Below are positions 33,810 through 52,002 of a stretch of 64,000 bases of DNA, in pieces. The notes under the pieces are model-generated. The model had not been told where the DNA came from. It saw only the letters and a program-made list of their open reading frames with translations, and ran no database searches. Each line of letters opens with the position of its first letter. Position 1 is the first letter of the stretch. The stretch spans positions 22,001-86,000 of the IMG/VR virus record IMGVR_UViG_3300026478_000749; one strand, 5' to 3'. This stretch comes from a virus. A program made the translations under genes and the position numbers.

Positions 33810-33810
33810 A

Positions 33811-34644
33811 ATGAATATATTATATAATAGAGATAGTAAATCGTTGGTTTTTAATCCGGAAACAGATTTTAGAACAAATGCTGGATGGGAAAAAAATTTC
33901 CTAGATTACCAGGAAGAAGTTCTAAGGTCAATTATCAATCCGGTTGAAAATTATGAAACGGTTAGATATATTCATGAACCATATGATGTAACAATATCTG
34001 GGGTAACAACTAAGCAGTGTGATATTTGGTATCAATTTTATTTTTTAAACAACCAGAACCCTAGAGATTATGACAATGGCTTTGATTACGATTTGATCGG
34101 TATAAGCCCAAAAGAAAATGCCAAATTGTTAAAGCACACCGTTAATAGTTTCTTTAGGTTAGAATTTTATACAACAAGGGAAAGAGAAACACAAAAACTT
34201 GTTTTTGCTAAAAATTTATCAATACCTCTTGGCCAAAAAGTTTTTGACCTAAACTTAAGAGAAGACATTTTTGTGCCGGTATTTAATGGTAACAACTATA
34301 GAAATACTGAAAACATGTATTTGTTTTGGTTTGGTGACGATAGTGTGTTTAGTGGACTAACCTTTTATATGACAGCTAGATTCTTTAACGCTGAAGACGG
34401 TACTATTACAAGATTCTTAAATAAAGATTTAACTGTAAATAATTCTGGTTTAGTTAATGGTGAAAGAGTGGGAACAACCGCTAATCCTGTTAAGTTTTAT
34501 GAGATGAACTATAGCAATACCGTGGACGAGGTTAATGATGTTTATTATCAAGTAAGATTTAAAAGATCAGATCATAGCTACAAAATAACAAGAGGAATTA
34601 CAAGTGATTGTGATTTTGGTAGTGGCACCGCAACTAAATTATAA
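33811..34644 (+). CDS. Putative virion structural protein
   Basis: 277 aa within the baseplate operon. Confidence 0.55.
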   Translation: MNILYNRDSKSLVFNPETDFRTNAGWEKNFLDYQEEVLRSIINPVENYETVRYIHEPYDVTISGVTTKQCDIWYQFYFLNNQNPRDYDNGFDYDLIGISPKENAKLLKHTVNSFFRLEFYTTRERETQKLVFAKNLSIPLGQKVFDLNLREDIFVPVFNGNNYRNTENMYLFWFGDDSVFSGLTFYMTARFFNAEDGTITRFLNKDLTVNNSGLVNGERVGTTANPVKFYEMNYSNTVDEVNDVYYQVRFKRSDHSYKITRGITSDCDFGSGTATKL

Positions 34645-34646
34645 AA

Positions 34647-35909: not shown

Positions 35910-35933
35910 AATTATATTTATTAATAAAATGCT

Positions 35934-36853: not shown

Positions 36854-39800
36854 ATGGCAAAAAGAAAAGTTCCGAGTCAGGCGGCTAGTGGTTTTGAAAC
36901 GTTTAGCGATAGTCTCGTTGGTAGACAAATTACCGACGGTACTAGTCAATTGACTAATACGAACTTCGCTCTTGATACAATTGTCCCAGAGAAAGACTCA
37001 AAAAAATTCCAAACTGCGCCATTTTCAGATTTTATTACATTAGAAAATCTTAAGGTTGAGGAAGATGTTCCAACAACGGTTGTACAATCTGATGGTAAAA
37101 AGAGACCAGTAAGATTTAATACAAATAAAAGGGACGCATCTAAATCTCTTTTTGGTTCATTAAGAGAAAGAATTAGAGTCTCTATTGCTAGAATTGCTAA
37201 AAATTTTCCTGGTGCTATTTTTGTTGATAAAGATGCTTTAGCATCAATCACCAGCTACACTGCTGAAAATATATCATATAACCCAACAACTAACACAACA
37301 ACATTTAAAATTCAAGTTGGTAGATTTTTCAATCCTTTTGATATTGTATTAAAAGAGCCAACAGCAAGTCAATTAATTGAAGTTGAAAACAAAATAAGAA
37401 ATTTATTCTCTTCATATACAAAATATTGTATTGTAGTTGAGAATAAAACATATGCTATAACAAGCTATGTACAACCAGATCAGTTTAACCAAATATCACT
37501 TGTTGTTGATGGTAAACCGTTTACCGGGACAACATATTCAGATAGTTTTATTTTAAGACCCAATGATAGTGTTGTTGAAGAATTTTACTTAGGACTAGAC
37601 GATTTAGAGCAAACATTATTAAATAGAGATACCTATCCAATATATCAAGCTGGATTTACGGTTCCTAGAACTAGTTTAGATGAAACAAAAACAGAACTAA
37701 TTTCTATATTAGTTAACTGGCCAACATCAAAAGACGGATATAATATTCAAATTACCGGTCTTAAGTTTGAAGAGTACATAACACGTCTAAGTGATTTAGC
37801 AACTGAAATTGATAACTATAAATCTAACTTAGTTACAAGATTCCTTGTTGCCCCACAATTATTTGAATTTGATACTGAAGACCAAAAAATTGATAAGATA
37901 TTTCAATTATATGGTCAGAGTTTTGATAAGGTAAAATCTTATATTGATAATATTGCGAACATGAGAAATGTTTCTTATGACGCAATCGATAATATTCCAG
38001 ATGTTTTTCTTAAAAATTTAGCAAATACACTTGGTCTTAATACCATCAATTTATTTGATCAAAAAAGTTTAGAAGAACAAATATATAAAGCATCTTCTAC
38101 TGTTTACAATGGACAAGCTATTGGTAAAAATCTAGTAGAAGCTGAACTTGAATTTTACAGAAGATTATTAGTTAATCTAGCATTTATATACAAATCAAAA
38201 GGTACTAGAAGTAGTATTGAATTTTTCTTAAAGTTTATCGGTGCACCAGATCCAATGGTGAAAATAGACGAATATGTTTATAAAGTAACTAGCGCTTTAC
38301 CACCATCTACTTTAGATGATTTAAATAACACATTAAATAATATTAATGTTAGCAACAATGTAACATTTAATAGCGAAACATATACATATACCGTTTCTTC
38401 TTTAACAGGGTTAACAACAAATAGTCAATTAACGGATTATCCTATTGATGAAACAACGTTACTACCTAAAGCCCCAACAACAAACCAAGAAAATGTTTTC
38501 TTCCAAATGGGTTCAGGTTGGTCAAGCGTTACTTTAGATCACAGATCTTCAGATATTCTTGATACAGAAAATTCAGTATTATCAGGGAGAACTAAAACTT
38601 TACTAACAACATCGAAACCATATTCATATGGTGAAGAGTTTTTTGACAACTATAGAACATTACCTGGTTTGGATTATGGTTTTACAATACAAAGTGAAAT
38701 TGATAACCAGCAGGGGCAAATTTTAGAAGACGAAGCTCTTTCAAATTTAATTCTTAATAGAAAAAACATAAACGTTTTTGTATCTGCAGCAAATGCTGTT
38801 AATTATGATATTTGGAGAAAGTCTAGAGAACTTGAAGTGACTTTTGGAACAAATAGTTTACCACCACAAACAGGTGTAACTTTTGCGCAATACTTAGAAA
38901 ATATTTTCTCAAGTCAAATAACTAATTCGAATATAATAAGATATAAGAAAAATTATATCGCTTTAGAGGATGTTTATCAGGATTACATAAATCAATTAGT
39001 AGCGTCTGGATATACAACTTATGATATGATATCAACATCTGATTTTGTTAATCAGATGAGTCCATATTGGTCAAATGTTTTAGAACAAATTATACCATCA
39101 ACAACATTATGGATGGGGGGTAATTTAATTGAAAACAATGTTTTTGGTAGACCTAAGTTTTCATATAGAAAACCATGTAAGCCGTTAGAGATTGTAGAAA
39201 ATTTATATCCAGAATTTGAAACAGTAATTGAAGAAGATCTTGAAACAATAATTGGAGACCCAGATAACTTAAGAGGTTTAATTGAATTTAGTGGTGTAAC
39301 ATTTACTTTACATATTGATATTGATGGAACTGATTATAGTGGGACAACACAGGTAGTTTTAACCGGTAGCACACTATTCGGTACCGGCTTTACCGCAGTA
39401 GAAAACTGTAGTGTACTTACTTCTTCATCATCTAAAATACCACTTATTTGTGAATATAAAAATTGGATCAATTTAAATTTAACAACAATAAAGGCTGCTT
39501 GGAAAAACGCAATAGCCGCGCTTGTTAATCAGATTAATCAAACAGAAACACAATACAGCGCATTTAATACTCCTTCATATGTTCCTGGAAATGCTGTATT
39601 ATCGGGAAAAACACAATTAATATCTTATGAATTTTTCACAGATAATAATGGTGTTGAAAAAGTTAAATTTATTGCACACACAAACTCTTCCGGAGAATGT
39701 TTAGTAAAAGATAATTTAGATTTTTATTTTGATGTTGATTACAAATATACTGAACCTAAATGTCATTTAGATTTATCATTTGATGCGTCTTGTGATGTTT

Positions 39801-41815
39801 ATTCTGGTTATCCAACTTGTAAAGTTGCAACAGATGTTATTGTTAGCTTAACAGGTGTTACAGTTCAATCTGGTAACGATAGTGGATGGGGAGTATACGT
39901 TCAAAGAAATTGTACACCTGGAAATAACATTAGTACAGGATATCACCCAACCTATACAGATACAAGTTTCTTCCAAATTGTTGGAGAAAATTGTAAGTTC
40001 AAACTTACTAATGTAAGAGAAGATGAAGTTATTGATTTAATTTTTACTGATGCAGCAAACTGTGATAAAAAAGTAAAAATTGAAGGATTAGCATTAAGAT
40101 ACGTTGAGTATCCAACTGAAGCACCTGATTTACCATTGGTTGTTAACACCGGTTACACGTTAGTACCAAAAGTACAATATAGAAACACATACAATTATGG
40201 TTTAAAACACAATACAAAAGTTATTGTTGTTAGTGGCGCTACAATTAATTCATCTACAACACCGGCAAACATTACTAGTTATTTAGCTGCAGGTACTCTT
40301 GTTAAAAAAGACGTTAAAGATTTAGTTAATGGAAATGTTATATTAGGCGCAACATACTTATCATGCACTACACTTTCATCAAGCATGTTTGAATATGCTA
40401 GTGAAAACAATGATTATTCTTTTTCATATGATTATTCAACGCATACAATTAGTGATATTGATTGTTTGGGGTCAGTAAAGAAAAGTGAAATAACAGGTAT
40501 GACTTCAAATGGTCAACAGGTTGTTATTGAAGTTTTACCAACAACAAAACTACGTGTTTACACAAATAAAGAGGTTGATGAAGCAACATATAGAGTATCT
40601 AAACGAGATGGTTATTTCTTTGATTCTAGATCTCCAGAGTTTTTGCAATTAAAACCAGAAACACCTGAAGAGCCTTGTTGTTATTATCCATCAGATTACT
40701 ATGATACCGGAGATTTTTTAATTACAGAAAAAGGTGAATTATTAGAGGTCATTGCAGTTAATTTAAATTACTGTGAAAATAATCTTTATTATAACATTAA
40801 TGTAACAGGAACACAACCTCAAAATTTAGTATTATTTAATGGTAATAATGGAACACAAGTTTTAATACAACATTCATATACTAAGTTTAATAGACTTAAT
40901 ATGAATTTAAGTCAATATTATATTGATAATCAATGTTGTAAAACTGAAATTGAAGATCCTGTAAGAAATTATACAACTGAATGTGGTATTATAATTCCAG
41001 CAGTACCTTGTGGTAGCGCATATCCAATAGTTACCCCAACCCCAACATCTACACCGACACCAACAAATACATCTACCAGTACACCAACAGCAACGGGTAC
41101 ACCAACAGCAACGGGTACACCAACAGCAACCCCAACCCCTACTGTAACTCAAACATCAACTAATACCCCTACCAGTACACCAAGTAGTACCGCTACACCT
41201 ACTATAACTGAGACACCAACTAACACACCTACAGTAACAGATACACCAAATTGTGAATTTGTTATTGACACAAATATTGTAATAACAACGCCGACACCAA
41301 CAACAACGTCAACATCAACACCTAATTGTGAATTTATGGTTGATACTGTTGCGGTAATTGCTACCCCAACACCAAGCATAACAATCACCCCCACCTCTAC
41401 TTACACACCAAATTGTGAATTTGTAATAGACACTGTTGCGGTAATCGCCACACCAACACCAAGTGTTACTATAACACCTACATCAACTTTCACATCTAAT
41501 TGTGATTTTATTATTGATACTGTTGCTATAATTGCTACACCTACGCCAACGATCACAACTACACCAACAGTAACTGAAACCCCAACATCATCGGATAGTT
41601 GTGAATTTGTTGTTGATGTAAATGCAACGATTGCAACACCAACACCAACAATTACTACTACACCAACAATAACAACTACACCAACAATTACATTTACCGA
41701 AGGGTCTTGTGATATGGCATATGAAGTGGTTGAAAGTTCAGAGGGGATAATAGTTGAAAATGGTGCAAGTTTTATTGCAGATGAAAATAATACTGATATA
41801 TTAATAGTAGAATAA
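36854..41815 (+). CDS. Baseplate wedge protein (gp7 / tail protein I-like) with a C-terminal Thr-Pro-rich modular extension
   Basis: Tail-I-like IPDVFLKNLANTLG and LAFIYKSKGTRSSIEFFLKFIG; the last ~260 aa are TP linkers with repeated C(E/D)F strands. Confidence 0.65.
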   Translation: MAKRKVPSQAASGFETFSDSLVGRQITDGTSQLTNTNFALDTIVPEKDSKKFQTAPFSDFITLENLKVEEDVPTTVVQSDGKKRPVRFNTNKRDASKSLFGSLRERIRVSIARIAKNFPGAIFVDKDALASITSYTAENISYNPTTNTTTFKIQVGRFFNPFDIVLKEPTASQLIEVENKIRNLFSSYTKYCIVVENKTYAITSYVQPDQFNQISLVVDGKPFTGTTYSDSFILRPNDSVVEEFYLGLDDLEQTLLNRDTYPIYQAGFTVPRTSLDETKTELISILVNWPTSKDGYNIQITGLKFEEYITRLSDLATEIDNYKSNLVTRFLVAPQLFEFDTEDQKIDKIFQLYGQSFDKVKSYIDNIANMRNVSYDAIDNIPDVFLKNLANTLGLNTINLFDQKSLEEQIYKASSTVYNGQAIGKNLVEAELEFYRRLLVNLAFIYKSKGTRSSIEFFLKFIGAPDPMVKIDEYVYKVTSALPPSTLDDLNNTLNNINVSNNVTFNSETYTYTVSSLTGLTTNSQLTDYPIDETTLLPKAPTTNQENVFFQMGSGWSSVTLDHRSSDILDTENSVLSGRTKTLLTTSKPYSYGEEFFDNYRTLPGLDYGFTIQSEIDNQQGQILEDEALSNLILNRKNINVFVSAANAVNYDIWRKSRELEVTFGTNSLPPQTGVTFAQYLENIFSSQITNSNIIRYKKNYIALEDVYQDYINQLVASGYTTYDMISTSDFVNQMSPYWSNVLEQIIPSTTLWMGGNLIENNVFGRPKFSYRKPCKPLEIVENLYPEFETVIEEDLETIIGDPDNLRGLIEFSGVTFTLHIDIDGTDYSGTTQVVLTGSTLFGTGFTAVENCSVLTSSSSKIPLICEYKNWINLNLTTIKAAWKNAIAALVNQINQTETQYSAFNTPSYVPGNAVLSGKTQLISYEFFTDNNGVEKVKFIAHTNSSGECLVKDNLDFYFDVDYKYTEPKCHLDLSFDASCDVYSGYPTCKVATDVIVSLTGVTVQSGNDSGWGVYVQRNCTPGNNISTGYHPTYTDTSFFQIVGENCKFKLTNVREDEVIDLIFTDAANCDKKVKIEGLALRYVEYPTEAPDLPLVVNTGYTLVPKVQYRNTYNYGLKHNTKVIVVSGATINSSTTPANITSYLAAGTLVKKDVKDLVNGNVILGATYLSCTTLSSSMFEYASENNDYSFSYDYSTHTISDIDCLGSVKKSEITGMTSNGQQVVIEVLPTTKLRVYTNKEVDEATYRVSKRDGYFFDSRSPEFLQLKPETPEEPCCYYPSDYYDTGDFLITEKGELLEVIAVNLNYCENNLYYNINVTGTQPQNLVLFNGNNGTQVLIQHSYTKFNRLNMNLSQYYIDNQCCKTEIEDPVRNYTTECGIIIPAVPCGSAYPIVTPTPTSTPTPTNTSTSTPTATGTPTATGTPTATPTPTVTQTSTNTPTSTPSSTATPTITETPTNTPTVTDTPNCEFVIDTNIVITTPTPTTTSTSTPNCEFMVDTVAVIATPTPSITITPTSTYTPNCEFVIDTVAVIATPTPSVTITPTSTFTSNCDFIIDTVAIIATPTPTITTTPTVTETPTSSDSCEFVVDVNATIATPTPTITTTPTITTTPTITFTEGSCDMAYEVVESSEGIIVENGASFIADENNTDILIVE

Positions 41816-41837
41816 ACAAAAAAAATATTTAAATAAA

Positions 41838-42431
41838 ATGAGTATAGTTAGAATTTCGGAATTACAAAGATTAACAACCCCAACAAATGGCGCGTTATTT
41901 TATATGGCACAAGGAAATGGGCCAACATATAGTTCAAGTGCAATCACATATGACGATTTATTTGGTAATGTTATAACGACAGGGTCAACAAGATTTTTTG
42001 GTTCATATAGTAGTTCCGTTACTCAAACAGGAACAACAAATACCGAACATCTAATGACATTCAATAGTCTTGATGCAACAAATGGTTGTACTTGGGCAAA
42101 TGGAACACAAATGATTGTTAGTAATCCTGGGTCATATAATTTACAATTTTCTGCTCAATTATATAGAGTTCAAGGAGGAACAACCGAAAACATCTATATA
42201 TGGTTTAAGAAAAATGGTCAAAATGTGACAAATTCAAATACCGCAATAACATTTGCAAATAATGGTCAATATATTGTTGCCGCATGGAATATCATATACC
42301 CTAACTTAAGTAGTGGTGATAACGTTGAAATTGCGTGGGCTACAACAGATAGTAATATACAAATAAGAGCATTGACCCCATCCCTTGGGCCGTCAATACC
42401 ATCAGTAATAGCAACATTAACACAAGTATAA
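41838..42431 (+). CDS. Short fibre protein with a C1q/TNF/BclA-C-like domain
   Basis: N-terminal RISEL motif; jelly-roll pattern GSYNLQFSAQL...IYIWFKKNGQNV...LSSGDNVEIAW. Confidence 0.6.
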   Translation: MSIVRISELQRLTTPTNGALFYMAQGNGPTYSSSAITYDDLFGNVITTGSTRFFGSYSSSVTQTGTTNTEHLMTFNSLDATNGCTWANGTQMIVSNPGSYNLQFSAQLYRVQGGTTENIYIWFKKNGQNVTNSNTAITFANNGQYIVAAWNIIYPNLSSGDNVEIAWATTDSNIQIRALTPSLGPSIPSVIATLTQV

Positions 42432-42434
42432 TAA

Positions 42435-44006
42435 ATGGCAACAATAAGATTATATAGTACATCTGGCTTATACAATGGTTATTATGCTGACGTTGTTTTC
42501 CACCCATATAGTGGAGGAACAGCTGTCAATATTGGCACCAATGTACTTATACCTTATTTTTGGACATCCGATTATTACTATGGTACATATGATTTTAATT
42601 TTAAAAATGAGCTTGAGGGTTTTACATGTAATTTAGAAATTGTACCAAATGTAACACCAACCCCAACAACAACCCCAACAATCACATTTACACCTACTGA
42701 AACACCAACAGTAACATCTTCAGATAGTTGTGAATTTATAATTGATATTAATGCAATAATTGCAACACCAACCCCTACATTTACTACAACCCCAACTATC
42801 ACAGAAACACCAACGGTGACCTCTTCAGATAGTTGTGAGTTTATGATTAACATCGATGCTATTATTGCAACACCAACACCAACACCAACGTCTACCGGAA
42901 CACCAACAATAACTCAAACCCCAACTACAACCGAGACACCGACGCCAACAGAGACACCTACTATTACAATTACCCCAACAGAGACATATACACCAAATTG
43001 TGATTTTATTATCGATACTATTGCTATAATTGCTACACCAACACCAACTTCAACACCTACAATAACAGAGACACCTACGTCTACTGAGACACCAACTATC
43101 ACACAAACGCCAACTTCAACATCTACTGCGACACCAACGATAACTGAAACACCAACATCTACTTATACACCAAATTGTGAGTTTGTAATAGATACTGTTG
43201 CGGTAATCGCCACACCAACACCTACTTCAACTTCTACACCAACAACAACTGAAACGCCAACAGCAACCCCAACCTCTACTGCAACACCAACGGTAACTGA
43301 AACACCAACAGCAACGCCAACATCAACTTATACACCTGATTGTGCGTTCCAAGCTGCGTTTGGTACACCATTAGTTGTTGATGAAAATACTGAAATTAAT
43401 ATTTGGTTTGATGATAGCGGCTCAATGAATTCAACATTAGCACCATTACAAACTATGAGAGATACCATTTTAAGAGATTGTCTTGTTCAATTCTACAATA
43501 ATGATTATAACACATATGATCAAAACGTAACGGTAAGCAACTTCTCAAGTAAAACTGGTGGTACAGAGAGAACGATGTACATATTGAACACAACTGGAAC
43601 AACAGCTGGTATAACTAAGGTTATAAATTTAGTATTCCAAGATGAATCTTCACCATATGCTGCTGACGGTAGTTCATTTAATATTAGCGTCAGAACAGGA
43701 ACATATGATACAGACATAAGTGGCTTAAGATCAACGCTTGACAATGTTCCGAATAGCAGTTATTATAGAGGTATTGTGTTTAGAGTTAATACAGGACCAG
43801 ATTCGTATGACGGATTTAGACAATTCTTAGCTGCCGTTAAAAACGGGGCTGGAGCATATTCGGGAACAAATGGTCTATCAGATAAGAGTGAAATAACCTA
43901 CATTTCAAATGTTACAGCAGGATCAAATGCTCAGTATTATGCGGATCAAATAATAACAGCACTAAACACATTGGGGTATAATTTAAACCTGTGTAATCAA
44001 AGTTAA
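42435..44006 (+). CDS. Thr-Pro-rich fibre protein with a C-terminal vWA-like domain
   Basis: Long TP linkers, then [11 protein letters not shown] (MIDAS DxSxS) and VINLVFQDE. Confidence 0.6.
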
Positions 44007-44025
44007 TGAATAATTATATAGAATA

Positions 44026-47000
44026 ATGGCAAAACAATTCACAGTAACAATATCTTCAGGGACAGCACCAGGGCCATACAACATTTATTATGATGTTGTT
44101 GATCCGTTGAATATTGCTACTGTAGTTTCAACGTCACTACCTGCAACAGGAATAACATATTCAGATTTAACAAACATAAACGGCGTATTGGTATCGGTAC
44201 CAGATAATGCGTATAAAATAATTTTATATAACACAGATCCATATTGTTTAATCGGTGACGATTTAATTTTACCAACACCAACACCAACAGCTACACCAAC
44301 AACAACACCAACAATTACTGCTACACCTACTATAACACCAACCCCAACCCCAACATTTACAGCAACGCCAACATCAACTTATACACCAAATTGTGAATTT
44401 ATTATTGATACCTCGGCGACTATTATAACGCCGACACCAACATCTACCGCGACACCAACCCCAACAAACTCAACACCAACGGATATTACATTAAGTAATG
44501 ATAGTATAAATGAAAATAGTGCTATAAACACTATTATCGGTACATTGAGCACAACAGATGCAAATCCGGGTGATACACATACGTACAGCATTCAACCAGG
44601 TGGTAATGGGTTTAAATTTAATATATCTGGTAGTAGTTTAAGATCATCTGAATCTTTTAATTATGAAGCAGCAACTTCATACACAGTAACAATTAGATCA
44701 ACAGATAGTGGCGGATTATATTTTGATAAAACATTTACAATTTATGTAAACAATGTAAATGAAGCACCATACGGCTTGAATTTCAGTGGTTCAATTCCTG
44801 AAAATTCAGCAACAGGTACAACTGTTGGTACAATAACGGCTTTGGATGTTGATTCTGGTGATACATTTACATATGCATTAACAGATACAATAAATTATCC
44901 AGATAATAATAGTTTTACATTAACAACAGCGGGGGTTTTAAAATCAGCTGCGGTTTTTGACTATGAAACAAAAAATTCATATTCAATTAAAGTAAGAACA
45001 ACAGATGCTGGCGGATTAACATATGATGGTGTATTAACAGTACCAATTACAAACGTTAATGAGGCACCTTACGGTTTAACAATAAGCAGTAATACAATTG
45101 CAGAAAACTCTGCAACAGGAACAACTATTGGAACTCTATCTGGTTTAGATTATGATGCTGGATCGACATTTACTTACGCATTTACAGATACCATAAATTA
45201 TCCTGATAATAGTAGCTTTAGCATAAGTGGATCAACACTTAGATCTGCTGTTATCTTTAATTATGAAACCAAATCTTCATATTCAATTAAAATTAGGGTT
45301 ACTGACCAAGGTGGGTTAACGTATGATGGAACATTAACAATCAATGTAACAAATGTTAACGAAACACCAACAAATATTTCATTAAGCGCGTCTTCAATTG
45401 CTGAAAATGTTGCTACTGGTACAACAATTGGTACGTTATCAACAACAGATCCAGATGCTGGTGATACATTTACATATCAGCTATATGATACTGCAACCTA
45501 TCCTGATAACAGTAGCTTTAGCATAAGTGGATCAACACTTAGATCTGCTGCAGTTTTTAATTATGAAAGCAAAAGTTCGTATAGCATTAGGGTTAGATCA
45601 ACAGATGCTGGTGGATTAACATTTGATAAAACATTAACGATTACAATTACGAATGTAAACGAAACACCAACGGGCATTTCATTATCATCAAACACAATTG
45701 CAGAAAATTCTGCGACCGGAACAACAATTGGTACGTTATCAACAACAGATCCAGATGCAGGGGATACGTTTACTTATACATTAACAGATACAGTAAATTA
45801 TCCCGATAATAGCAGCTTTACCATTGTTGGTTCATCACTAAGATCTGCAGCAATATTTAATTTTGAATCTAAATCTTCTTATTCAATCAAAGTTAGATCA
45901 ACAGATGCGGGCGGATTAACAGTAGATCAAACTTTTGCAATTTCTGTTACAAATGTTAATGAAGCCCCAACAAATATAAGTTTAAGTTCTTCATCAATAT
46001 CAGAAAACGTACCAACCGGAACAACTGTTGGTACATTTAGTTCTACAGACCCAGACGCTGGTGATACATTCACATATGCATTAGTAGATACATCAACATA
46101 TCCAGATAATAGTAGTTTCTCAATTTCAGGAAGCACATTAAGAAGTGCGGCCATTTTTGATTTTGAAACACAATCAACATATTCAATAAGAGTTAGAGCA
46201 ACAGATGCAGGTGGACTAACCTATGACAAAACAATAACAATATCTATTACAAATGTTACAATATCTGTTGGAGCATCTGTAACAACAAATGTGACGTGTA
46301 ATGGCGGATCAAACGGTGTTATAACAGTATCGGGTGTCACTGGCGGAACTGCAAGTTATACATATTCTAAAGATGGGTCAACTTATCAGTCGTCAAATGT
46401 ATTTAGCGGCTTAACTGCTAATTCATATATTTTATATGCCAAAGATTCTTATGGTGAAGTTGGTAGTAGTGCTGTAGTAACAGTAACTCAACCAGCAGTA
46501 GTCTCACTTAGTGCATCTGGAACAAACCCAACGTGTGTTGGTAGTACCGATGGTTCAATTACAGTATCATCTGCATCTGGCGGGTCTGGAAGTGGTTATA
46601 CCTATTCTAAAGATGGTTCAAGCTATCAGACTGGGACAACATTTAGCAATTTAGCTAATGGAACATATACAATTTATGCAAAAGATAGTAATAATTGTAC
46701 TGGATCAACTTCAGTAACATTAAGTAGAACACAAGTTACTGCAACAATATCACAAACAAATGTAACTTGTAATGGAGGTAACGATGGGTCAATAGTTGTT
46801 TCTGATTTAGCTGGTGGTCAAGGCGGACCATATTCAACAAAATTAAATGCCGGAGGAACTTACCAAGTAATTACAACCTCAAGAACATATTCATCACTAA
46901 CAGCAGGTTCATACACAATTTATGTGAAAGATAGTGCTGGTTGTGAAAATACGTATGCAGTAACAATAACTCAACCATCTCAAGTAACAGTTAGTTCATC

Positions 47001-48963
47001 TTCATTGGTGTATCCAACTTGTTGGAATAGTACTAACGGTGGATTTACATTAAGTGCTTCTGGGGGTGTAGGAACATATCAATATTCTAAAGATAACGGG
47101 GCAACATGGCAAAGTAGTGGTGTTTTCACTAACTTAAGTTCTGGTGTTTATACTGTTAAATCAAAAGATAATAGTGGATGCCAATCTACTGGTTTAACGG
47201 TTGACATAACTAAGTCCGCACCAACACCGGTGGTCAACCAAACAAACGTTTCTTGTAATGGAGGAACTGGATCATTAAATGTTGTTGGCGCAAGTGGTGG
47301 TAATAATGGGCCGTATACTGTTTCATTAAATGATGTAACATACTATACGGTACAAAAATTATTTGACTCATTATCACCTGGGGTATATACATTATATATT
47401 AAAGATGCAACAGGATGTAAGGCGTCTTATACATATACAATCACACAACCATCTGCATTAACAATAAGTGTTAGCTCTGCAACAAATCCAACTTGTTGGA
47501 ATGGTACAAATGGTGAAATAGTTGTTTCGGCATCTGGTGGAACAGGAACAAAAACTTATTCAAAAGACGGTACAAACTACCAAGCAAGCGCAACGTTTAG
47601 CAATTTAGGTACAGGTACATATACATTGTATGTAAAAGATGCTAATGATTGTACCGCAACAGTATCACAAACCTTATCTAAATCAGCTCCTAATGCGCAG
47701 ATTCAAGTGACTAATCCATCTTGTTTTGGTGGTACAGGTTCAATAGTTGTTTCTGCAGGTACAGGAGGAAATGGCGGCACGTATCAATCAAAATTAAATG
47801 CCGGAGGAACTTATGGAAATCTCCCACAAACATATTCGAGTTTAGGTGACGGATCGTACACAATTTTTGTTAAAGATGGTTCAGGATGTGAGCAAACATA
47901 TTCTACTTCAATAAGTGTTCCAACTCAAGTGACAATCAGTACAAATGCAACATATCCAACATGTTATAATAGCTCTAATGGTGCTGTTACAGTTGGGGCT
48001 GGTGGAGGAACTGGCTCGTACGAATACTCTAAAGATGGTGGATCAACATGGCAATTAAGTAATTCATTTACTAGTCTCTTTGCTACAACATATACCTTTA
48101 GAGTAAAAGATAGCAACGGATGTTTATCATCAACACAATCTGTTAACTTAAGTAAAGCGGCGCCTTATGCTAATATTTCAGTTTCTAATGTGACTTGTAA
48201 CGGAGGATCAAACGGCTCAATTACATTAACTAACCCAACAAGTGGAAATAGTGGCCAAATTACCGCATCATTAACAGGTGGTGTATCTGATTACTATTCA
48301 TTTACACTTGGTACATTAACATTTAGTAATAAAACTGCGGGTACATATACTGTATACATAAAAGATTCTAGTGGTTGTGTTGCTACATATGAAGCTATCA
48401 TAACTCAACCTACAGCACAATCAGCTTCAATTAGTAGTCCTGTAAACCCACCATGCGCTGATCCAAATGGAGGTAGCTTGACAATTTCATCTGCAGGTGG
48501 TGTGTGGCCTAAGACATATAGATTATATGAAGACGAATCTTCGCCATATACAACTTGTGGCGGCACATTAAGAGCGACATATACTAACGTCACTTCAGAT
48601 AATACAAGTAGAAGTGTTACAGGTCTAACTTCTGGCGGATTCTGCTTAGAAGTAACAGATGCAAACGGATGTGTAGTTACAAGCGGAATAACAGTTTTAG
48701 TTGACGAAGCGGTAAATTATACATATCAAGTTATCAGATGTAGTGACAACGCATATTTAACAATGACTTCACCAGATGTATTAGTATCAGCATTCTTAGG
48801 TGGAACTAAAGTGGTGAAAATCAATAATGTATGTTACCAAATCGACTACTCAACTGGTACGCAGTGTTCAACTAGTTCAATTCATTTAGCTGACGGAAAT
48901 AACGCAGTAATCTATAACAATTGTACTAACTGTAGTAGTGGTAGCGGAGGTCAACAAGTATAA
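44026..48963 (+). CDS. Giant adhesin-like virion protein with 6 cadherin repeats and 10 SprB-like repeats
   Basis: Cadherin motifs I.ENS..GT.IGTLSTTDPD, FNYE, TDAGG, NVNE(A/T)P; SprB-type repeats TNVTCNGG.NG.I.V...GG...Y.YS.DG...L..G.YT.YVKD..GC. Confidence 0.85.
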   Translation: MAKQFTVTISSGTAPGPYNIYYDVVDPLNIATVVSTSLPATGITYSDLTNINGVLVSVPDNAYKIILYNTDPYCLIGDDLILPTPTPTATPTTTPTITATPTITPTPTPTFTATPTSTYTPNCEFIIDTSATIITPTPTSTATPTPTNSTPTDITLSNDSINENSAINTIIGTLSTTDANPGDTHTYSIQPGGNGFKFNISGSSLRSSESFNYEAATSYTVTIRSTDSGGLYFDKTFTIYVNNVNEAPYGLNFSGSIPENSATGTTVGTITALDVDSGDTFTYALTDTINYPDNNSFTLTTAGVLKSAAVFDYETKNSYSIKVRTTDAGGLTYDGVLTVPITNVNEAPYGLTISSNTIAENSATGTTIGTLSGLDYDAGSTFTYAFTDTINYPDNSSFSISGSTLRSAVIFNYETKSSYSIKIRVTDQGGLTYDGTLTINVTNVNETPTNISLSASSIAENVATGTTIGTLSTTDPDAGDTFTYQLYDTATYPDNSSFSISGSTLRSAAVFNYESKSSYSIRVRSTDAGGLTFDKTLTITITNVNETPTGISLSSNTIAENSATGTTIGTLSTTDPDAGDTFTYTLTDTVNYPDNSSFTIVGSSLRSAAIFNFESKSSYSIKVRSTDAGGLTVDQTFAISVTNVNEAPTNISLSSSSISENVPTGTTVGTFSSTDPDAGDTFTYALVDTSTYPDNSSFSISGSTLRSAAIFDFETQSTYSIRVRATDAGGLTYDKTITISITNVTISVGASVTTNVTCNGGSNGVITVSGVTGGTASYTYSKDGSTYQSSNVFSGLTANSYILYAKDSYGEVGSSAVVTVTQPAVVSLSASGTNPTCVGSTDGSITVSSASGGSGSGYTYSKDGSSYQTGTTFSNLANGTYTIYAKDSNNCTGSTSVTLSRTQVTATISQTNVTCNGGNDGSIVVSDLAGGQGGPYSTKLNAGGTYQVITTSRTYSSLTAGSYTIYVKDSAGCENTYAVTITQPSQVTVSSSSLVYPTCWNSTNGGFTLSASGGVGTYQYSKDNGATWQSSGVFTNLSSGVYTVKSKDNSGCQSTGLTVDITKSAPTPVVNQTNVSCNGGTGSLNVVGASGGNNGPYTVSLNDVTYYTVQKLFDSLSPGVYTLYIKDATGCKASYTYTITQPSALTISVSSATNPTCWNGTNGEIVVSASGGTGTKTYSKDGTNYQASATFSNLGTGTYTLYVKDANDCTATVSQTLSKSAPNAQIQVTNPSCFGGTGSIVVSAGTGGNGGTYQSKLNAGGTYGNLPQTYSSLGDGSYTIFVKDGSGCEQTYSTSISVPTQVTISTNATYPTCYNSSNGAVTVGAGGGTGSYEYSKDGGSTWQLSNSFTSLFATTYTFRVKDSNGCLSSTQSVNLSKAAPYANISVSNVTCNGGSNGSITLTNPTSGNSGQITASLTGGVSDYYSFTLGTLTFSNKTAGTYTVYIKDSSGCVATYEAIITQPTAQSASISSPVNPPCADPNGGSLTISSAGGVWPKTYRLYEDESSPYTTCGGTLRATYTNVTSDNTSRSVTGLTSGGFCLEVTDANGCVVTSGITVLVDEAVNYTYQVIRCSDNAYLTMTSPDVLVSAFLGGTKVVKINNVCYQIDYSTGTQCSTSSIHLADGNNAVIYNNCTNCSSGSGGQQV
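44464..46257 (+). repeat. Six tandem cadherin-coding repeats with about 300 bp period
   Basis: 45199-45250 vs 45499-45550 are near-identical; 45421-45458 vs 45721-45758 are identical. Confidence 0.9.
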
Positions 48964-49018
48964 AATATAAAGCAAATAAAACCAAATAAACGAATATTTA
49001 TATTAAAAAGAAAAAACA

Positions 49019-49585
49019 ATGATAGTTACTTTCACATTACAAAATCAATATTCTGGCGCAACATATGTAGCTGGGCCTTTTAATATTTCGGGAACAACTG
49101 ACGCTAACGTAACAACAGAATTAGCGACGGGAATAACCAAAGAACAGTTATTAACCGGACATACAATTACAGGTATTACTGATTCAACAACCGGTGGAAC
49201 AATTGCTAGTACTGGGGTTTGCACAAATACTCAACAATGGGTAGCTTTCCCATCACAATCAACACCAACACCAACAGTAACCCCATCAGCGTATGGATAT
49301 TGTTACAGTCTGACTTATTCAACAATACCAAATGATCTATATGTTAGATATAGAGACATGGAAGGTGTGGTTACAACGACTCTAATCCAAAATTTACAAA
49401 GTATGGATAATGGAAATGGAACATATACCGCCTACATATGCGTTATGCAAGGAGGTTCATACCAATCTCCGGTTTGTGTTCAATACAGTATGGAAGTTAC
49501 TTGCGACCCATACTTATGGTCAACAGATAACTGTATTTGTACCACAGTATCTGGTAGTGAATGTTTTGTACCATGTGCCAACTAA
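49019..49585 (+). CDS. Small Cys-rich virion/fibre accessory protein
   Basis: N-terminal domain related to that of 44026 (GPFNI, ATGIT), a TP linker and a Cys-rich C-terminal domain; preceded by TATTTATA. Confidence 0.6.
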   Translation: MIVTFTLQNQYSGATYVAGPFNISGTTDANVTTELATGITKEQLLTGHTITGITDSTTGGTIASTGVCTNTQQWVAFPSQSTPTPTVTPSAYGYCYSLTYSTIPNDLYVRYRDMEGVVTTTLIQNLQSMDNGNGTYTAYICVMQGGSYQSPVCVQYSMEVTCDPYLWSTDNCICTTVSGSECFVPCAN

Positions 49586-49606
49586 TTTTAAATTAAATAA
49601 TATTTT

Positions 49607-49634
49607 AAAACCCCTTCAAAACAAGGGGTTTTTT
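49607..49634 (+). terminator. Rho-independent terminator
   Basis: AAAACCCCTT / AAGGGGTTTT stem followed by a T-run. Confidence 0.8.
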
Positions 49635-49667
49635 ATTTATATTTTATAAGAGTTGTATTTATGTAGT

Positions 49668-50846
49668 ATGGGATTAAATCTAAAATTAAAAGGTATTGTT
49701 TCACCAAACCCATTTAAGTTATTATATAAAACTGGGCCAACCGCAGGTAATGAATCCGTGGTCACAACTGGGTATACATATTATCCAAATTCTACTACAA
49801 CTTATCAAGCAAGTTCTGATGGATCATATTACAACACAAATCCTATTATTTTTAGCGGGGCATCGTACAGTACTCAATACTGGTTTAAAATTTTAGACAC
49901 CGTAACCGGAGGCTATGTGATTGAAAATGTTTTCACAAATCACGAAGAGGTTTATGATAATTGTATAAATTGTTGTTTATTTACTGGGGGTACATCGAAC
50001 TATATTGATTGTAGATTTAGTGGAGGATCAGCAATAAGTGATCAAGTGATAACACCCTCACCAACAGGAACACCAACAAGTACATCAACTAATACAGCAA
50101 CGCCAACAAGTACTGCTGGGGTAACACCAACACCAACAAGTACACCAACACCAACAAGTACTCAAGGAGTAACACCGACTAGTACAGGTACACCGACAAC
50201 AACATCTACACCTACAATTACACCAACAGTAACTGGAACACCAACAGTAACAACATCTGGAGGTAGTGGTTGTATAACAATTAGTGAGTCAATTAGCAAT
50301 GAACAAATAAATTGTTTAGGTCAGGGGCCTTATAATAACACAATAACAAGGGTTACCGCAACCTTAAGTGCAATTGCTGGGGTTAGTGTAGAAGTTATGG
50401 TAAACGCAACAAGAAACTATTGTTACGGAGGGACAACCCCTGAAACTTATTCTATAACAATAACCGCAGGTAACCTATCAAATTACGTTGATATAACAAC
50501 AACAGGATATGTTGATTGTGGTGGTCAAGAAAGCTATTGTCAAGCTGAGACAATCACAATCGATAGTTATGCGTCAATAACACCAAATTATAGTGTATGC
50601 GCAGACCCAACCCCATCCCCAACCATAACACCAACATCTTCAGCGGTAACATATAATTGTAATAATGGTGTATGTGAAGCAGTATATGACGGAAGTGGTT
50701 TATATACCACATTACAAGATTGTCAATCTAATTGTGTACAAACCACATATTATTGTAAAGATAGTGAATTTTCACCATGTTACGCACAAGTTGGCCCATG
50801 CACAGGTACACAAATAACATGTAGCCAGTTTGAAGTACCGAATTAA
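49668..50846 (+). CDS. Thr-Pro- and Cys-rich virion/fibre accessory protein
   Basis: Start moved to ATG 49668, after TATTTAT at 49656. TP linkers and C-terminal YNCNNGVC...YTTLQDCQSNC. Confidence 0.6.
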   Translation: MGLNLKLKGIVSPNPFKLLYKTGPTAGNESVVTTGYTYYPNSTTTYQASSDGSYYNTNPIIFSGASYSTQYWFKILDTVTGGYVIENVFTNHEEVYDNCINCCLFTGGTSNYIDCRFSGGSAISDQVITPSPTGTPTSTSTNTATPTSTAGVTPTPTSTPTPTSTQGVTPTSTGTPTTTSTPTITPTVTGTPTVTTSGGSGCITISESISNEQINCLGQGPYNNTITRVTATLSAIAGVSVEVMVNATRNYCYGGTTPETYSITITAGNLSNYVDITTTGYVDCGGQESYCQAETITIDSYASITPNYSVCADPTPSPTITPTSSAVTYNCNNGVCEAVYDGSGLYTTLQDCQSNCVQTTYYCKDSEFSPCYAQVGPCTGTQITCSQFEVPN

Positions 50847-50875
50847 TAAAATAAAAGAAATAATATTTATAACAT

Positions 50876-51979
50876 ATGGCATTTAACGCTTCGGTAAATT
50901 TAGGAACAGTAGGAAACGGAATTACAGGACAAACCGTTTCAATATCAGGATGTACAGGTGCATCTTGTGGAAGCGGCTGTACAAGCTTAGCGACATCACA
51001 AGCTGTAACTAGTTTTCCAAAAACATTAACAGGAATACCCGATAACGTGGTTAGTTTATTTGTTAAAGTTGATGGAGGTGATTGTTCAGGAACATCACAA
51101 TGTATTTCTATTACAGGTATACCAGGAGCGACACCAACACCAACAACAACTTCTACTACTGTTAATCCAACGATCACGCCAACAACAACACCAACTATTA
51201 ACCCAACAATTACACCTACCACAACCACTACACCAACTATCAATCCAACAATTACACCTACAGTAACACCAACAACTTGTTTAAGCGGTGATTTAACAAC
51301 AACAGGTACTTGTAGTGGTTCAGATTTATCAACATTTACGTTGGCAAGCGGATACAAAGTAACAGTTGAACCACAAGGTTACTTCTACAGTGGTACAGGA
51401 ACAAGATACGCATATGCATATTTAAGAACAAGTACAGGGGTTGATATTCAACAATTTACATTAACACAAGTTAATAGTAACACACCAACATTCTCACCAA
51501 CAGGATATACATTAACAACACCAGGCACATATCAGCTATATGTACAACAAATAGATTGTAATCAAGGAGGAGGAACTGGAGGTTCCGGTCAAATGAATCT
51601 AGATGTTCGCGATTGTCAAGAATATACTGCAACGCCAACACCAACATTAACACCAACATTGCTTAATGAATTTTATATTGCTTCTCCGGTTGATGTAAGT
51701 TTAACTGGTAGCACATATTGTAGTAGCCCAGGTTATATAATGTCGGGGGTAATAAAATCAACATCATCAACTATTTCAGGAATGCTTAATAATCCTGTAT
51801 ACGATTCTGCTGGCGACCCATTTGTTGGGCCTGGATCAGGTTATGTTTACGCAATAAAAACAACACAATACGGAAATACATACAATGATGGTCAATTTAG
51901 TTGGATTGAAATTGATTCAATGGGTAATGTAACAGACGTAGGATCACAATCATGTGGTGGCGGAGGTGGACCGATGTAA
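50876..51979 (+). CDS. Thr-Pro- and Cys-rich virion/fibre accessory protein
   Basis: N-terminal anchor-like domain (LAT, GIPDN, C), TP linkers and two small beta domains; TATTTATA at 50864. Confidence 0.6.
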   Translation: MAFNASVNLGTVGNGITGQTVSISGCTGASCGSGCTSLATSQAVTSFPKTLTGIPDNVVSLFVKVDGGDCSGTSQCISITGIPGATPTPTTTSTTVNPTITPTTTPTINPTITPTTTTTPTINPTITPTVTPTTCLSGDLTTTGTCSGSDLSTFTLASGYKVTVEPQGYFYSGTGTRYAYAYLRTSTGVDIQQFTLTQVNSNTPTFSPTGYTLTTPGTYQLYVQQIDCNQGGGTGGSGQMNLDVRDCQEYTATPTPTLTPTLLNEFYIASPVDVSLTGSTYCSSPGYIMSGVIKSTSSTISGMLNNPVYDSAGDPFVGPGSGYVYAIKTTQYGNTYNDGQFSWIEIDSMGNVTDVGSQSCGGGGGPM

Positions 51980-52002
51980 ATAAAAACATATACTTTTAAC
52001 AT

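Follow-up and report, generated by a model that had tools for sequence, protein, structure and literature searches.

Modular phage receptor-binding proteins combine a conserved N-terminal anchor with exchangeable distal domains. The locus described here resembles them in having small N-terminal domains followed by highly variable payloads, encoded beside baseplate genes. It differs in its long Thr-Pro (TP) tethers carrying a strand with one cysteine, and in the fusion of payloads to a stalk protein in relatives. Recombination at conserved motifs in T-even tail-fibre adhesins was reportedly described by Tetart et al. in 1996 and 1998. In the T-even gp37/gp38 adhesins short conserved motifs set apart variable segments (Trojet et al. 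2011, PMC3157838); these motifs are glycine-rich and lie inside one folded domain. Like the segments so described, the present locus loses collinearity at conserved elements, in this case strand/TP arrays. In contrast to them, these elements are single strands in disordered-looking TP tethers, and whole domains are exchanged and genes fused or split.

Cellulosome scaffoldins have Pro/Thr-rich linkers between modules and are bound by dockerins, Ca-binding domains of ~70 residues. The linkers are alike, and here too binding or catalytic modules could conceivably be displayed multivalently. However, the proposed plug is a strand of only 12 residues, and Pfam gave no cohesin or dockerin match in the 8 proteins scanned. 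Chaperone-usher pili assemble by donor-strand complementation, in which one N-terminal extension is donated. A short strand of alternating hydrophobic residues could likewise complete or extend a small beta sandwich, as one AlphaFold model suggests. Unlike the pilus strand, it is repeated inside linkers; the domain looks complete with its own last strand, its best fold match reaches Z 5.3, and no chaperone or usher is involved. A literature search found no report of long TP tethers punctuated by a conserved one-Cys strand, which seems to be undescribed so far.

The adhesion block and its strand unit

The window is the whole stretch of DNA analysed (64,000 nucleotides), part of an 86-kb contig with an estimated completeness of 28% (CheckV). 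Its source is an uncultured jumbo contractile-tailed phage, the host of which is probably a member of the Bacteroidota, and it holds the distal host-adhesion block of the phage. A gp6/Baseplate_J homologue (25837-27669) lies upstream of the stalk gene (36854-41815), bearing out an earlier preliminary description of a modular array of adhesin-like proteins on TP tethers adjoining baseplate genes. Five proteins downstream of the stalk protein each consist of a small N-terminal adaptor domain, a TP tether and an adhesive payload (a vWA/integrin-like domain, cadherin plus SprB repeats, or Cys-rich domains). All six TP-linked proteins share one architecture, in which the last Cys of the small N-terminal domain (or body) stands ~8-17 residues before the TP tract.

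The same description had noted a repeated ~12-residue module with one Cys in the stalk protein and its neighbours at 42435 and 44026. A regex scan in six frames confirms it, with 10 copies in the 86-kb contig and no others, in three adjacent genes only: five in 36854-41815, four in 42435-44006 and one in 44026-48963. The consensus is [N/D/S]-C-[E/D]-F-x-[I/V]-[D/N]-x-x-x-x-x, then TPTP. TP tracts flank each unit, and two flavours occur in the window, '..YTPN-CEF..' and '..SSDS-CEF..'. The stalk gene and its small neighbour are laid out as follows.

36854..41029, plus strand: body of the 1653-residue stalk protein (residues 1-1392); ORF within the baseplate region
41030..41689, plus strand: TP stalk of this protein, ~260 residues including the tail, with five units
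41252-41287, 41327-41362, 41414-41449, 41501-41536 and 41600-41635, plus strand: stalk units (regex scan)
41690..41812, plus strand: C-terminal tail of the stalk, 41 residues, acidic and strand-rich, starting TFTEGSC
41838..42431, plus strand: 197-residue protein (ORF) without Pfam or PHROG family

The body has orthologues in relatives that are 54-97% identical. The whole protein matched no family in Pfam or PHROGs and nothing below E 0.1 among PDB sequences, and an Atlas search gave a single lead (0.76), so its former label of gp7-like wedge protein has no backing. Conservation of its tail extends to the L002 and L019 orthologues; fused forms lack it. The 197-residue protein is found only in relatives retaining the tail and is missing in L016, L017, L018 and L053.

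Among the 10 window copies pS is 0.61 and pN 0.20 (pN/pS 0.33); amino acids are held while codons drift, and on this measure the unit is constrained at the protein level. When hydrophobic 12-mers next to TP tracts were sought with no requirement for Cys or Phe, 43/45 unique hits had Cys first and Phe third; the other two were out of register on units that also bear C-x-F. All fetched loci together hold 401 instances in 175 unique versions, from 93 unique proteins. Hydrophobic residues occupy positions 3, 5, 7 and 9; those at 4, 6 and 8 are mostly D/N/G, V being frequent as well at 4 and 8. The unit is predicted to be an amphipathic beta strand of 12 residues in which one Cys and one Phe are invariant. 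In both AlphaFold models every unit is a strand (DSSP E, an assignment that needs a ladder partner).

A sister motif, C-x-F-[SGT]-G-x-x-[AG], occurs 21 times in unique ORF segments of relatives vs 0.2 in shuffles and is followed by a TP tract in 13 of 18 unique contexts. CDFGSGTA and CRFSGGSA, previously listed as weaker relatives of the module, are rightly so placed, and the orthologue of the 277-residue protein in L042 has the same type of C-terminal motif.

34609..34632, plus strand: CDFGSGTA at the C-terminus of a 277-residue protein (33811-34644); sister motif of the strand unit
49653..50846, plus strand: 397-residue protein with a ~130-residue N-terminal domain ending in CRFSGGSA (50010-50033), a TP tether and a Cys-rich payload

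A two-unit DNA pattern matched 45 IMG/VR viral contig stretches vs 0 in 185,579 cellular species genomes. A window-type pattern matched 10 viral and 13 metagenome stretches, with 0 matches in cellular species genome contigs. By these two patterns the unit occurs in phage contigs only. Within one locus, units from different proteins have an identity of 0.66, vs 0.37 between loci (27 loci, 351 pairs), so among these loci each genome has its own version, common to its different proteins.

Adaptor domains and payloads

The 523-residue protein encoded at 42435-44006 has the following parts.

42435..42650, plus strand: N-terminal domain, residues 1-72; last Cys C65, 9 residues before the TP tract
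42651..43340, plus strand: TP tether with four units
42729-42764, 42834-42869, 42999-43034 and 43176-43211, plus strand: tether units (regex scan)
43341..43370, plus strand: 'terminal' strand variant (C-x-F-[EDNQ]-A-x-F type) directly before the payload
43371..44003, plus strand: vWA/integrin-beta-I-like alpha/beta payload; DDSGS (DxSxS) motif at 43410-43427

AlphaFold, which had few homologues for the N-terminal domain, gives it pLDDT 29-40 over residues 1-70. The four units are strands of 10-11 residues with block pLDDT of only 31-52. The payload is confidently folded (pLDDT 93-99 over residues 311-510). The terminal strand, with surrounding pLDDT of 37-42, is no part of that domain, and the same type precedes different payloads in L006, L013, L011, P0007 and P0022. 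The payload fold matches 6om1_F (VIA) at Z 10.4 (rmsd 3.4 A, 158 aligned residues) and vWF A1 at Z 9.3. It is thus like vWA and integrin beta-I domains in fold and in its DxSxS motif and unlike them in that Pfam models, VWA included, find no match to 43371-44003 even at E 0.1. A Pfam-recognised VWA domain occupies the equivalent position in L006, and the payload has 90 homologues, among them two named Flavobacteriaceae proteins.

The 1645-residue protein (44026-48963) and the two shorter adaptor-type proteins beyond it are arranged as follows.

44026..44280, plus strand: N-terminal adaptor domain, residues 1-85, small beta sandwich with near-invariant Cys74
44392..44427, plus strand: single strand unit CEFIIDTSATII in the tether (regex scan)
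44482..48960 (approximate boundaries), plus strand: payload of six cadherin repeats, SprB-type repeats and a Cys-rich end (Pfam)
49019..49585, plus strand: 188-residue protein (ORF) with an N-terminal domain, a short TP tract and a Cys-rich payload
50876..51979, plus strand: 367-residue protein (ORF) with a Cys-rich N-terminal domain (residues 1-85), a TP tether and a payload

Pfam upholds the cadherin and SprB repeats that had been assigned by eye to this protein (E 3.3e-52 and E 7.4e-38, six stretches each). The protein also matches PHROG 26672 'virion structural protein' (E 6.5e-32), and 300-nt direct repeats span 44639 to 46290. Its adaptor domain belongs to a large family: a profile search at E<=1e-3 gave 305 clusters, nearly always at residues 1-85, heading proteins of 64 to 1718 residues. 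C74 is kept in >=90% of 123 sequences and has no partner Cys inside the domain. AlphaFold predicts a sandwich that looks complete and has a last strand of its own (E77-81), at block pLDDT 85-96 over residues 1-80 and 81 over 81-90, and the best PDB fold match (Z 5.3) is a generic sandwich.

A ~75-residue N-terminal domain had been thought common to 44026, 49019 and 50876. The first two are marginally related (E ~0.003), and 50876 is not detectably so. BLASTP gave E 0.078 for 44026 vs 49019 and no alignment for 44026 vs 50876, and a shallow profile-profile comparison gave E 0.002 (global) for the former pair and 0.03-0.95 for the others. An HMM built from 145 sequences of the 44026-type domain and run against all ORFs of the contig in six frames listed 44026 (2.8e-34) and 49019 (0.0027, in register) and, at E<=10, none of 50876, 42435 and 49653. 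In other phages the vWA-like payload comes after N-terminal domains of four different types, and therefore these types appear to behave as interchangeable adaptors; the 50876 type precedes it in P0013, P0015 and P0016. The 188-residue protein's payload is found at the C-terminal end of the 1645-residue orthologue in G001, G002 and L016.

Fusions and junctions in relatives

In several relatives collinearity with the window breaks inside the strand/TP arrays. L016 is collinear to 41657, just past unit 5 of the stalk, and becomes so again from 42763, where unit 1 of the 523-residue gene ends. Collinearity stops at 41569 in L017 and L018 and resumes at 44275-44452, around the unit of the 1645-residue gene; in L053 it stops at 41685 and resumes at 44434. 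The products are a stalk with a vWA-like payload (L016), with cadherin/SprB (L014, L017, L018) or with a Pfam VWA domain (L006/L053). These architectures come from short-read metagenome assemblies, in which misjoins across repeats are possible, and they recur in several of them at ~80% identity to the window. The fused payloads of 42435 and 44026 sit on a 36854-type stalk without their N-terminal domain, and such chains keep 7-8 well-conserved units. This Rosetta-stone pattern argues that the separate adaptor-bearing proteins of the window join one structure with the stalk. From the same breakpoints, recombination at the strand/TP arrays may be inferred.

Possible roles of the strand

The job of the strand has to be inferred from these patterns. 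Tentatively, and with a likelihood somewhat short of even, the strands are best explained as sticky, probably disulfide-fixed beads of the stalk itself that double as recombination junctions. Each would pair with an exposed beta edge, possibly that of a strand in a neighbouring stalk copy or of a nearby small beta-sandwich domain. Disulfides would fix the paired strands once the virion has left the reducing cell, and the pairing would bundle and register otherwise floppy tethers. At the DNA level, the conserved units and TP codons would serve as crossover points where payloads are swapped, fused or detached. The protein-level constraint, the phage-only distribution, the genome-specific versions, the breakpoints in the arrays, the folded inserts between units, the 7-8 units kept by fused chains, the proteins with a single unit and the strands drawn by AlphaFold are in favour of such beads. 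The low pLDDT of the four units in the 523-residue protein counts against them. Genome-specific versions could, however, arise by gene conversion alone, as the units at 41414 and 43176 differ at only 2/36 bases. A search for a thiol oxidase gave no match in four fragments, and the control matched nowhere either.

The preliminary description saw the strands as docking sites. The modular array of that interpretation stands, and the N-terminal domains behave as interchangeable adaptors; docking by the strands is unsupported or undecided, yet it is a live if unlikely rival. Here the strand would be a donor strand inserting into, or lying along the edge of, the N-terminal beta sandwich of an adaptor-bearing adhesin, possibly locked by a disulfide, with the stalk a rack displaying several different adhesins. 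In the AlphaFold model of 44026 residues 1-150 the unit is a strand (E126-131) at block pLDDT 76 vs 54-65 for the linker, presumably in a beta ladder against the N-terminal domain, which has the model's only other strands. This placement (pLDDT ~76) counts against beads and favours docking, although AlphaFold is prone to placing a solitary hydrophobic strand on whatever beta edge is free. Many structural superpositions, all of them weak (Z<=5.3), extend from residue 1 of the model to 134-138, which suggests that unit and domain pack together. The near-invariant C74 lacks an intradomain partner, relatives have the adaptor-bearing payloads covalently attached to the stalk, unit versions are genome-specific, and the window has five stalk units and five adaptor-type proteins. 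However, these counts do not match elsewhere: 6 stalk units go with 5 adaptor proteins in the L002 type, 7-8 units with 3 in L017 and L018, and 8 units with 4 in L053. The domain is far wider than the strand, with the strict unit in only 10 of the 126 family members of >=130 residues. No unit lies within 10 kb of the domain in 17/58 viral loci, among them L035, L058, L070 and L082, which nevertheless have stalk-protein homologues. Among the five N-terminal domain types no homology is detectable beyond the marginal 44026-49019 link. Nor is there co-variation between the domain's last strand and the unit version (0.164 vs 0.149 shuffled, with 13% of shuffles reaching the observed value).

Stacking of the units within a single chain, as a sheet or solenoid connected by TP arcs that would make the stalk a rigid rod, is improbable. 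Some arrays are very regular (12 units in L011, several at a 23-residue period), and the 10-11-residue strands of the 523-residue model need ladder partners of similar length, but those units have low pLDDT. Linkers between successive units vary from 7 to 95 residues, and relatives have a folded insert of ~300 residues between units. Single-unit proteins make up 28/93, and therefore a partner outside the array is needed. Spacing, which in the window stalk is 25, 29, 29 and 33 residues from start to start, grows toward the C-terminus in 24/25 arrays; a uniform solenoid would not behave in this way, and the bead model also leaves the widening unexplained. Little credence is likewise given to the units having no protein role, as passengers of linker expansion by slippage and recombination whose importance, if any, would be as DNA homology for shuffling. 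Direct repeats at the DNA level make up the arrays (e.g., 128-nt copies at 63-80% identity), architectures break within them, and copy number ranges from 1 to 14. Yet synonymous divergence is three times the non-synonymous, and Cys, Phe and the amphipathic pattern are kept over the 175 versions while linkers and bodies have diverged to ~50% identity. Linkers, moreover, do not need units, since relatives have plain TP linkers.

The host-gripping tail proteins of this phage appear to be assembled from swappable sticky tips on floppy Thr-Pro tethers.

Genes and payloads of the adhesin block

The 64-kb window is part of an 86-kb viral contig of ~33% GC on which nearly all long ORFs lie on the plus strand. 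The whole genome is probably near 300 kb, because CheckV puts the contig at 28% completeness. UvsX-like, DnaB-like and ribonucleotide-reductase genes are found upstream of the adhesin block, as is a gp6/Baseplate_J homologue (25837-27669) on the same strand. The genes of the block, referred to below by their start positions or the length of their products, are as follows.

Genes of the adhesin block (window positions)
36854-41815: stalk protein, 1653 aa
41838-42431: 197-aa protein, no family
42435-44006: 523-aa protein
44026-48963: 1645-aa protein
49019-49585: 188-aa protein
49653-50846: 397-aa protein
50876-51979: 367-aa protein

A Pfam scan of the eight proteins of 36854-54204 at E<=0.01 leaves seven without any family. 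The exception is the 1645-aa protein, which also matches PHROG 26672 ('virion structural protein'). It carries cadherin domains (six stretches, E 3e-52, 175.3 bits, Pfam cut-off 28.8) and SprB repeats (E 7e-38, 128.3 bits, cut-off 28), as the preliminary description had proposed. The 'gp7-like' label that it gave the stalk protein finds no support. Pfam and PHROGs return no family for this protein at E<=0.01, PDB sequences return nothing below E 0.1, a tblastn search of 50,697 phage records returns no match, and Atlas offers no better lead than one at rank 20 (score 0.76, with Baseplate_wedge on 12% of members). By gene order a 1437-aa protein encoded further upstream is the better candidate for gp7, as a prediction. 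Five large ORFs (1437, 588, 277, 420 and 305 aa) occupy 27730-36851, between the gp6-like gene and the stalk gene, and are kept in relatives. The 1437-, 588-, 420- and 305-aa products have no PHROGs family, and the first two have no Pfam family. A minus-strand ORF of 209 aa (50728-51357), with a Gly/Val-rich product, is the antisense of the Thr-Pro codons in the 50876 gene and is almost certainly not a gene.

The payload of the 523-aa protein (43371-44003) is vWA-like by predicted fold. It is not filed as a VWA member, and the wording is chosen because its sequence fits none of the VWA models in Pfam (0 families at E<=0.1). AlphaFold, with 48 homologues, models residues 311-520 at pLDDT 87-99 (93-99 up to residue 510). 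A Foldseek search with the whole model gives no hit at E<=0.001; the match comes from a second look with VIA, which superposes the payload on integrin beta-I (6om1_F; Z 10.4, rmsd 3.4 A, 158 aligned residues) and on vWF A1 (Z 9.3). The MIDAS motif DxSxS is present as DDSGS at residues 326-330, and D326, S328 and S330 are each at least 90% conserved in the payload alignment. The payload has 90 homologues at E<=0.001, of which 13 carry strict units of the kind described below. Homologues from the Flavobacteriaceae Salegentibacter echinorum and Salinimicrobium marinum share 46-52% identity and have neither Thr-Pro tether nor Cys-led strand. Together with the SprB repeats, these sequences hint that the host is a member of the Bacteroidota with which genes have been exchanged.

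A one-cysteine strand unit in Thr-Pro tethers

The C-terminal ~260 residues of the stalk protein are Thr-Pro sequence holding five copies of a 12-residue unit (C-E/D-F-V/I/M-I/V-D-...). A regex search through all six frames of the contig turns up ten units and none beyond, which bears out the recurring one-Cys strand module first noticed from the sequence alone; four of the others are in the 523-aa protein and one is in the 1645-aa protein. The unit is also repeated as DNA, for example in 128-nt copies at 63-80% identity. It is real and held at the protein level, because pS among the ten copies (0.61) is three times pN (0.20) and because Cys and Phe are kept in an unbiased search. When hydrophobic 12-mers in TP context are collected with neither residue required, 43 of 45 unique hits start with Cys and have Phe as their third residue; the remaining two are out-of-register matches on the same kind of unit.

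All fetched loci together contain 401 unit instances in 175 unique versions and 93 unique proteins, with 1-14 units per protein and a single unit in 28 of the 93. The consensus is an amphipathic strand with invariant Cys and Phe, hydrophobic at positions 3, 5, 7 and 9 and mostly Asp, Asn or Gly at positions 4, 6 and 8 (Val is also common at 4 and 8). It ends in Ala or Pro followed by TPTP, and the residue ahead of it is usually Asn or Asp. Successive units are separated by TP-rich linkers of 7-95 residues, and gaps of 172-324 residues contain folded inserts. A Cys-bounded domain of ~300 residues is found between units in the related loci L016 (L016:7808-8710, minus strand), L001 and L019 and in the payload homologues P0002 and P0022; the window is without it, and in Pfam it comes no closer to a family than PA14, with a sub-threshold E of 0.016. 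A 'terminal' variant of the unit, C-x-F-[E/D/N/Q]-A-x-F..., occupies 43341-43370, just before the vWA-like payload, and is found in relatives too, upstream of quite different payloads. The weaker relatives of the unit reported earlier are also present, as CDFGSGTA in the 33811 protein (34609-34632) and CRFSGGSA in the 397-aa protein (50010-50033). This sister motif recurs in relatives, with 21 occurrences in their unique ORF segments where shuffles give 0.2, and stands directly before a TP tract in 13 of 18 unique contexts.

The version of the unit in the window, written as a degenerate DNA pattern, matches 10 IMG/VR stretches and 13 metagenome stretches, and none among 185,579 bacterial and archaeal species (one genome each). 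A looser two-unit pattern matches 45 viral stretches and is likewise absent from the genomes of the same 185,579 cellular species; both patterns capture only part of the unit diversity. Units of different proteins within one genome are 0.66 identical, against 0.37 between genomes (27 loci, 351 pairs), and such a genome-specific version could be caused by gene conversion or by selection for a matching partner. Towards the C-terminus the units become more widely spaced. This holds for 24 of the 25 arrays of five or more units (arrays in L014, L018, L044, L053 and L055 among others), where the binomial p of 1.5e-6 overstates independence as the arrays are related. Start-to-start distances are 25, 29, 29 and 33 residues in the window's stalk (41252-41635) and 29, 29, 31, 45, 45, 61 and 75 residues in the related locus L014. 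None of the models considered accounts for this gradient.

Several known kinds of motif, considered from sequence alone, were set aside for the unit. An intein-like or autoproteolytic N-C junction is at odds with the unconserved residue before the Cys, a Cys-Gln thioester domain with the lack of Gln in the unit, and a Bacteroidota O-glycosylation sequon with the presence of D-T-V in only some units. The Ca-binding pattern D-x-D-x-D is absent from the window's version, and a lipobox was set aside as having no defining feature or test. No described strand/Thr-Pro module was found in the literature, as judged by titles and the beginnings of abstracts. The available part of PMC12619734, on a 'moraphage' lineage in which this phage's membership is not established, does not mention these proteins.

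Adaptor domains and alternative architectures

A small N-terminal adaptor domain precedes the tether and payload of the separate adhesins. The preliminary description had a ~75-aa domain shared by the 44026, 49019 and 50876 proteins, of which only a marginal link between the first two stands. BLASTP among the N-terminal domains gives no single family, a shallow profile comparison (hhalign) pairs only 44026 with 49019 (E 0.002), and an HMM built from 145 sequences of the 44026 type recovers 44026 (E 2.8e-34) and, in register, 49019 (E 0.0027), with the 50876, 42435 and 49653 proteins absent at E<=10. Homology of all the N-terminal domains was therefore rejected. A profile search with the 44026 type returns 305 clusters at E<=0.001, nearly always over residues 1-85, the proteins listed being 64-2736 aa long. 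C74 is at least 90% conserved among 123 sequences of this family, and in all six TP-linked proteins the last Cys of the N-terminal part lies ~8-17 residues ahead of the TP tract. In BFVD the domain matches uncharacterised viral proteins only (best E 1.7e-3), and against the whole PDB VIA gives Z<=5.3 and no assigned fold.

The N-terminal domains are interchangeable in evolution, because one vWA-like payload stands behind four types of them in its homologues.

N-terminal domain types in front of the vWA-like payload (payload homologues)
42435 type: P0001, P0002, P0004
44026 type: P0005, P0006, P0007, P0014
50876 type: P0013, P0015, P0016
49019 type: P0061, P0072

Related contigs were compared by BLASTP of their ORFs against the window proteins and by DNA collinearity, and fall into four layouts.

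Architectures of the block in related contigs
Layout A (as in the window): L001, L002, L003, L008, L012, L019, L022
Layout B: L016; a 2276-aa protein with the stalk to its fifth unit, the ~300-aa insert, three units and the vWA-like payload
Layout C: L014, L017, L018; one protein of 2464-2573 aa with the stalk body, 7-8 units and, from residue 153 on, the cadherin/SprB payload
Layout D: L006/L053; the stalk body, eight units and a VWA domain (Pfam 29 bits, cut-off 23.8)

L016 is collinear with the window to 41657 and again from 42763, both edges lying at 'SSDS-CEF' units; it lacks the stalk tail, the 197-aa gene, and the part of the 523-aa gene that encodes the N-terminal domain and first unit. 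In layout C, where the L017 protein is cut by the contig end, collinearity ends at 41569 and restarts at 44275-44452, an interval around the one unit that the 1645-aa gene has; L015, L020 and L021, which are shorter contigs, have a unit array as in this layout. In L006/L053 the next gene encodes an orthologue of the 1645-aa protein, with its N-terminal domain. Overall, collinearity with the window ends at 41569-41685 and restarts at 42763 or 44275-44452, each of these points lying within a unit or beside one. The fused forms come from short-read assemblies, in which misjoins are possible; their recurrence in several assemblies, in a lineage ~80% identical to the window, speaks against misjoins by chance without excluding them.

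Thus payloads carried on separate adaptor-bearing proteins in the window are covalent ends of the stalk protein in relatives. These fusions make it most likely that the separate proteins belong to one structure with the stalk (a Rosetta-stone argument), and a payload would need an N-terminal domain only when unfused. Since every architecture edge lies in a unit/TP array, the arrays would also be sites where recombination re-sorts the block, a second role of the unit. T-even adhesins recombine at conserved-motif junctions, according to the available part of PMC3157838, and the architecture breakpoints here likewise fall at conserved motifs, as seen by comparison and not in crosses. The block also resembles modular phage receptor-binding proteins, in which a conserved N-terminal domain is combined with unrelated C-terminal domains among phages; the genes lie in a tail/baseplate block here too, and their products would be part of the virion and bind the host.

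The Cys-rich payload of the 188-aa protein (49290-49585) is a further payload move. It forms the C-terminal end of the 1645-aa orthologue in the related contigs G001, G002 and L016, with 54-67% identity to the copies there (G001:C1:12770-13108, L027, in G001). A 41-residue acidic tail of the stalk (41690-41812) occurs together with the 197-aa gene (41838-42431) in the window, L002 and L019, and both are missing from L016, L017, L018 and L053. The 197-aa protein may sit on this tail.

Stalk strands or docking plugs

On balance the strands are less likely to be docking sites, as the preliminary description had it, than to have a role within the stalk, where they would pair with strands of other stalk copies or with beta edges close by and, outside the cell, would probably be fixed by disulfides. 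The docking proposal holds that the units are plugs between chains. Each would complete or extend the small N-terminal beta sandwich that a separate adhesin carries, and a disulfide would lock it once the cell has lysed. The Thr-Pro stalk would be a programmable rack of branched, mixed adhesins, and the units as DNA would rewire which adhesins are plugged, fused or lost. We consider this unlikely. The AlphaFold model of residues 1-150 of the 1645-aa protein (122 homologues) speaks for it in that the domain block (residues 1-80) reaches pLDDT 85-96, the unit forms a strand (E126-131) at a block pLDDT of 76 against 54-65 for the linker, and many weak superpositions (all Z<=5.3) extend from residue 1 to 134-138, suggesting that the unit packs with the domain; pairing was judged from DSSP strand calls and alignment ranges in both AlphaFold models. 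However, in the model of the 523-aa protein the four units are 10-11-residue strands with a block pLDDT of only 31-52, and AlphaFold seems to treat the unit as a generic sticky strand, laid on any available beta edge. Plain Thr-Pro sequence after the unit in the 44026 model (residues 141-150, 44446-44475) has a mean pLDDT of 81, above that of the unit.

The distribution of units among relatives also counts against docking. Among the 126 members of the 44026 family that reach 130 aa, 41 follow the domain with a TP/S-rich tract but only 10 carry a strict unit; a unit lies within 10 kb in 41 of the 58 viral loci with a 44026-type domain and is lacking at that distance in the other 17; and stalk-protein homologues in L035, L058, L070 and L082 have plain linkers or none. 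The fused forms keep 7-8 units while their adaptor proteins drop from five to three, and the last strand of the domain does not co-vary with the unit version of the genome. A stoichiometry rule between units and adaptors was rejected, the ratio being 5:5 in the window and 6:5, 8:4 and 7-8:3 in relatives. So was derivation of the units as copies of the domain's last strand (identity 0.164, against 0.149 when shuffled, reached by 13% of shuffles; 30 locus pairs). In L065, L066 and L069 the sole strict-regex hit is the kind of sequence that ends an N-terminal domain. A search for the PF04777 thiol oxidase gives no match in four contig fragments and is uninformative, as its control matched no genome.

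In chaperone-usher donor-strand complementation the acceptor is an Ig-like fold without its last strand, and another subunit supplies a strand with alternating hydrophobic residues. The unit shows alternation at positions 3, 5, 7 and 9 and was modelled here within the same chain. The 44026 domain is predicted as a small beta sandwich with a last strand of its own (E77-81); its best PDB matches (C2, FN3 and Ig-like, Z 4-5.3) are within the tool's stated noise range. Cellulosome scaffoldins share with this block the Pro/Thr-rich linkers between modules, seen here in the translations and in DNA repeat families. The block is not a scaffoldin by membership, as the Pfam scan of the eight proteins of 36854-54204 (E<=0.01) finds neither cohesin (PF00963) nor dockerin, and in contrast to the dockerin, a duplicated Ca-binding segment, the candidate plug is a 12-residue strand. 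Of the earlier interpretation there remains an adhesin apparatus that is modular and probably multivalent, its adaptors and payloads being interchangeable.

To our knowledge, almost nothing is known of how uncultured jumbo phages recognise aquatic hosts of the Bacteroidota type. The block offers a compact building grammar for their adhesins, made of adaptor domain, Thr-Pro tether, one-Cys strand and payload, in which one payload occurs as a separate protein, fused or absent. The unit is short, strictly conserved and phage-only, and has no counterpart in the literature searched. If it were a plug, it would represent a virion assembly principle that is not known from any phage. Pairing or disulfide cross-linking of the strands, if true, would be a new route to ordering disordered tethers and a simple tag for the engineering of phage or protein display. 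Even as a mere bead on the stalk, the unit is a marker by which the host-recognition genes of this large phage family can be found in metagenomes.
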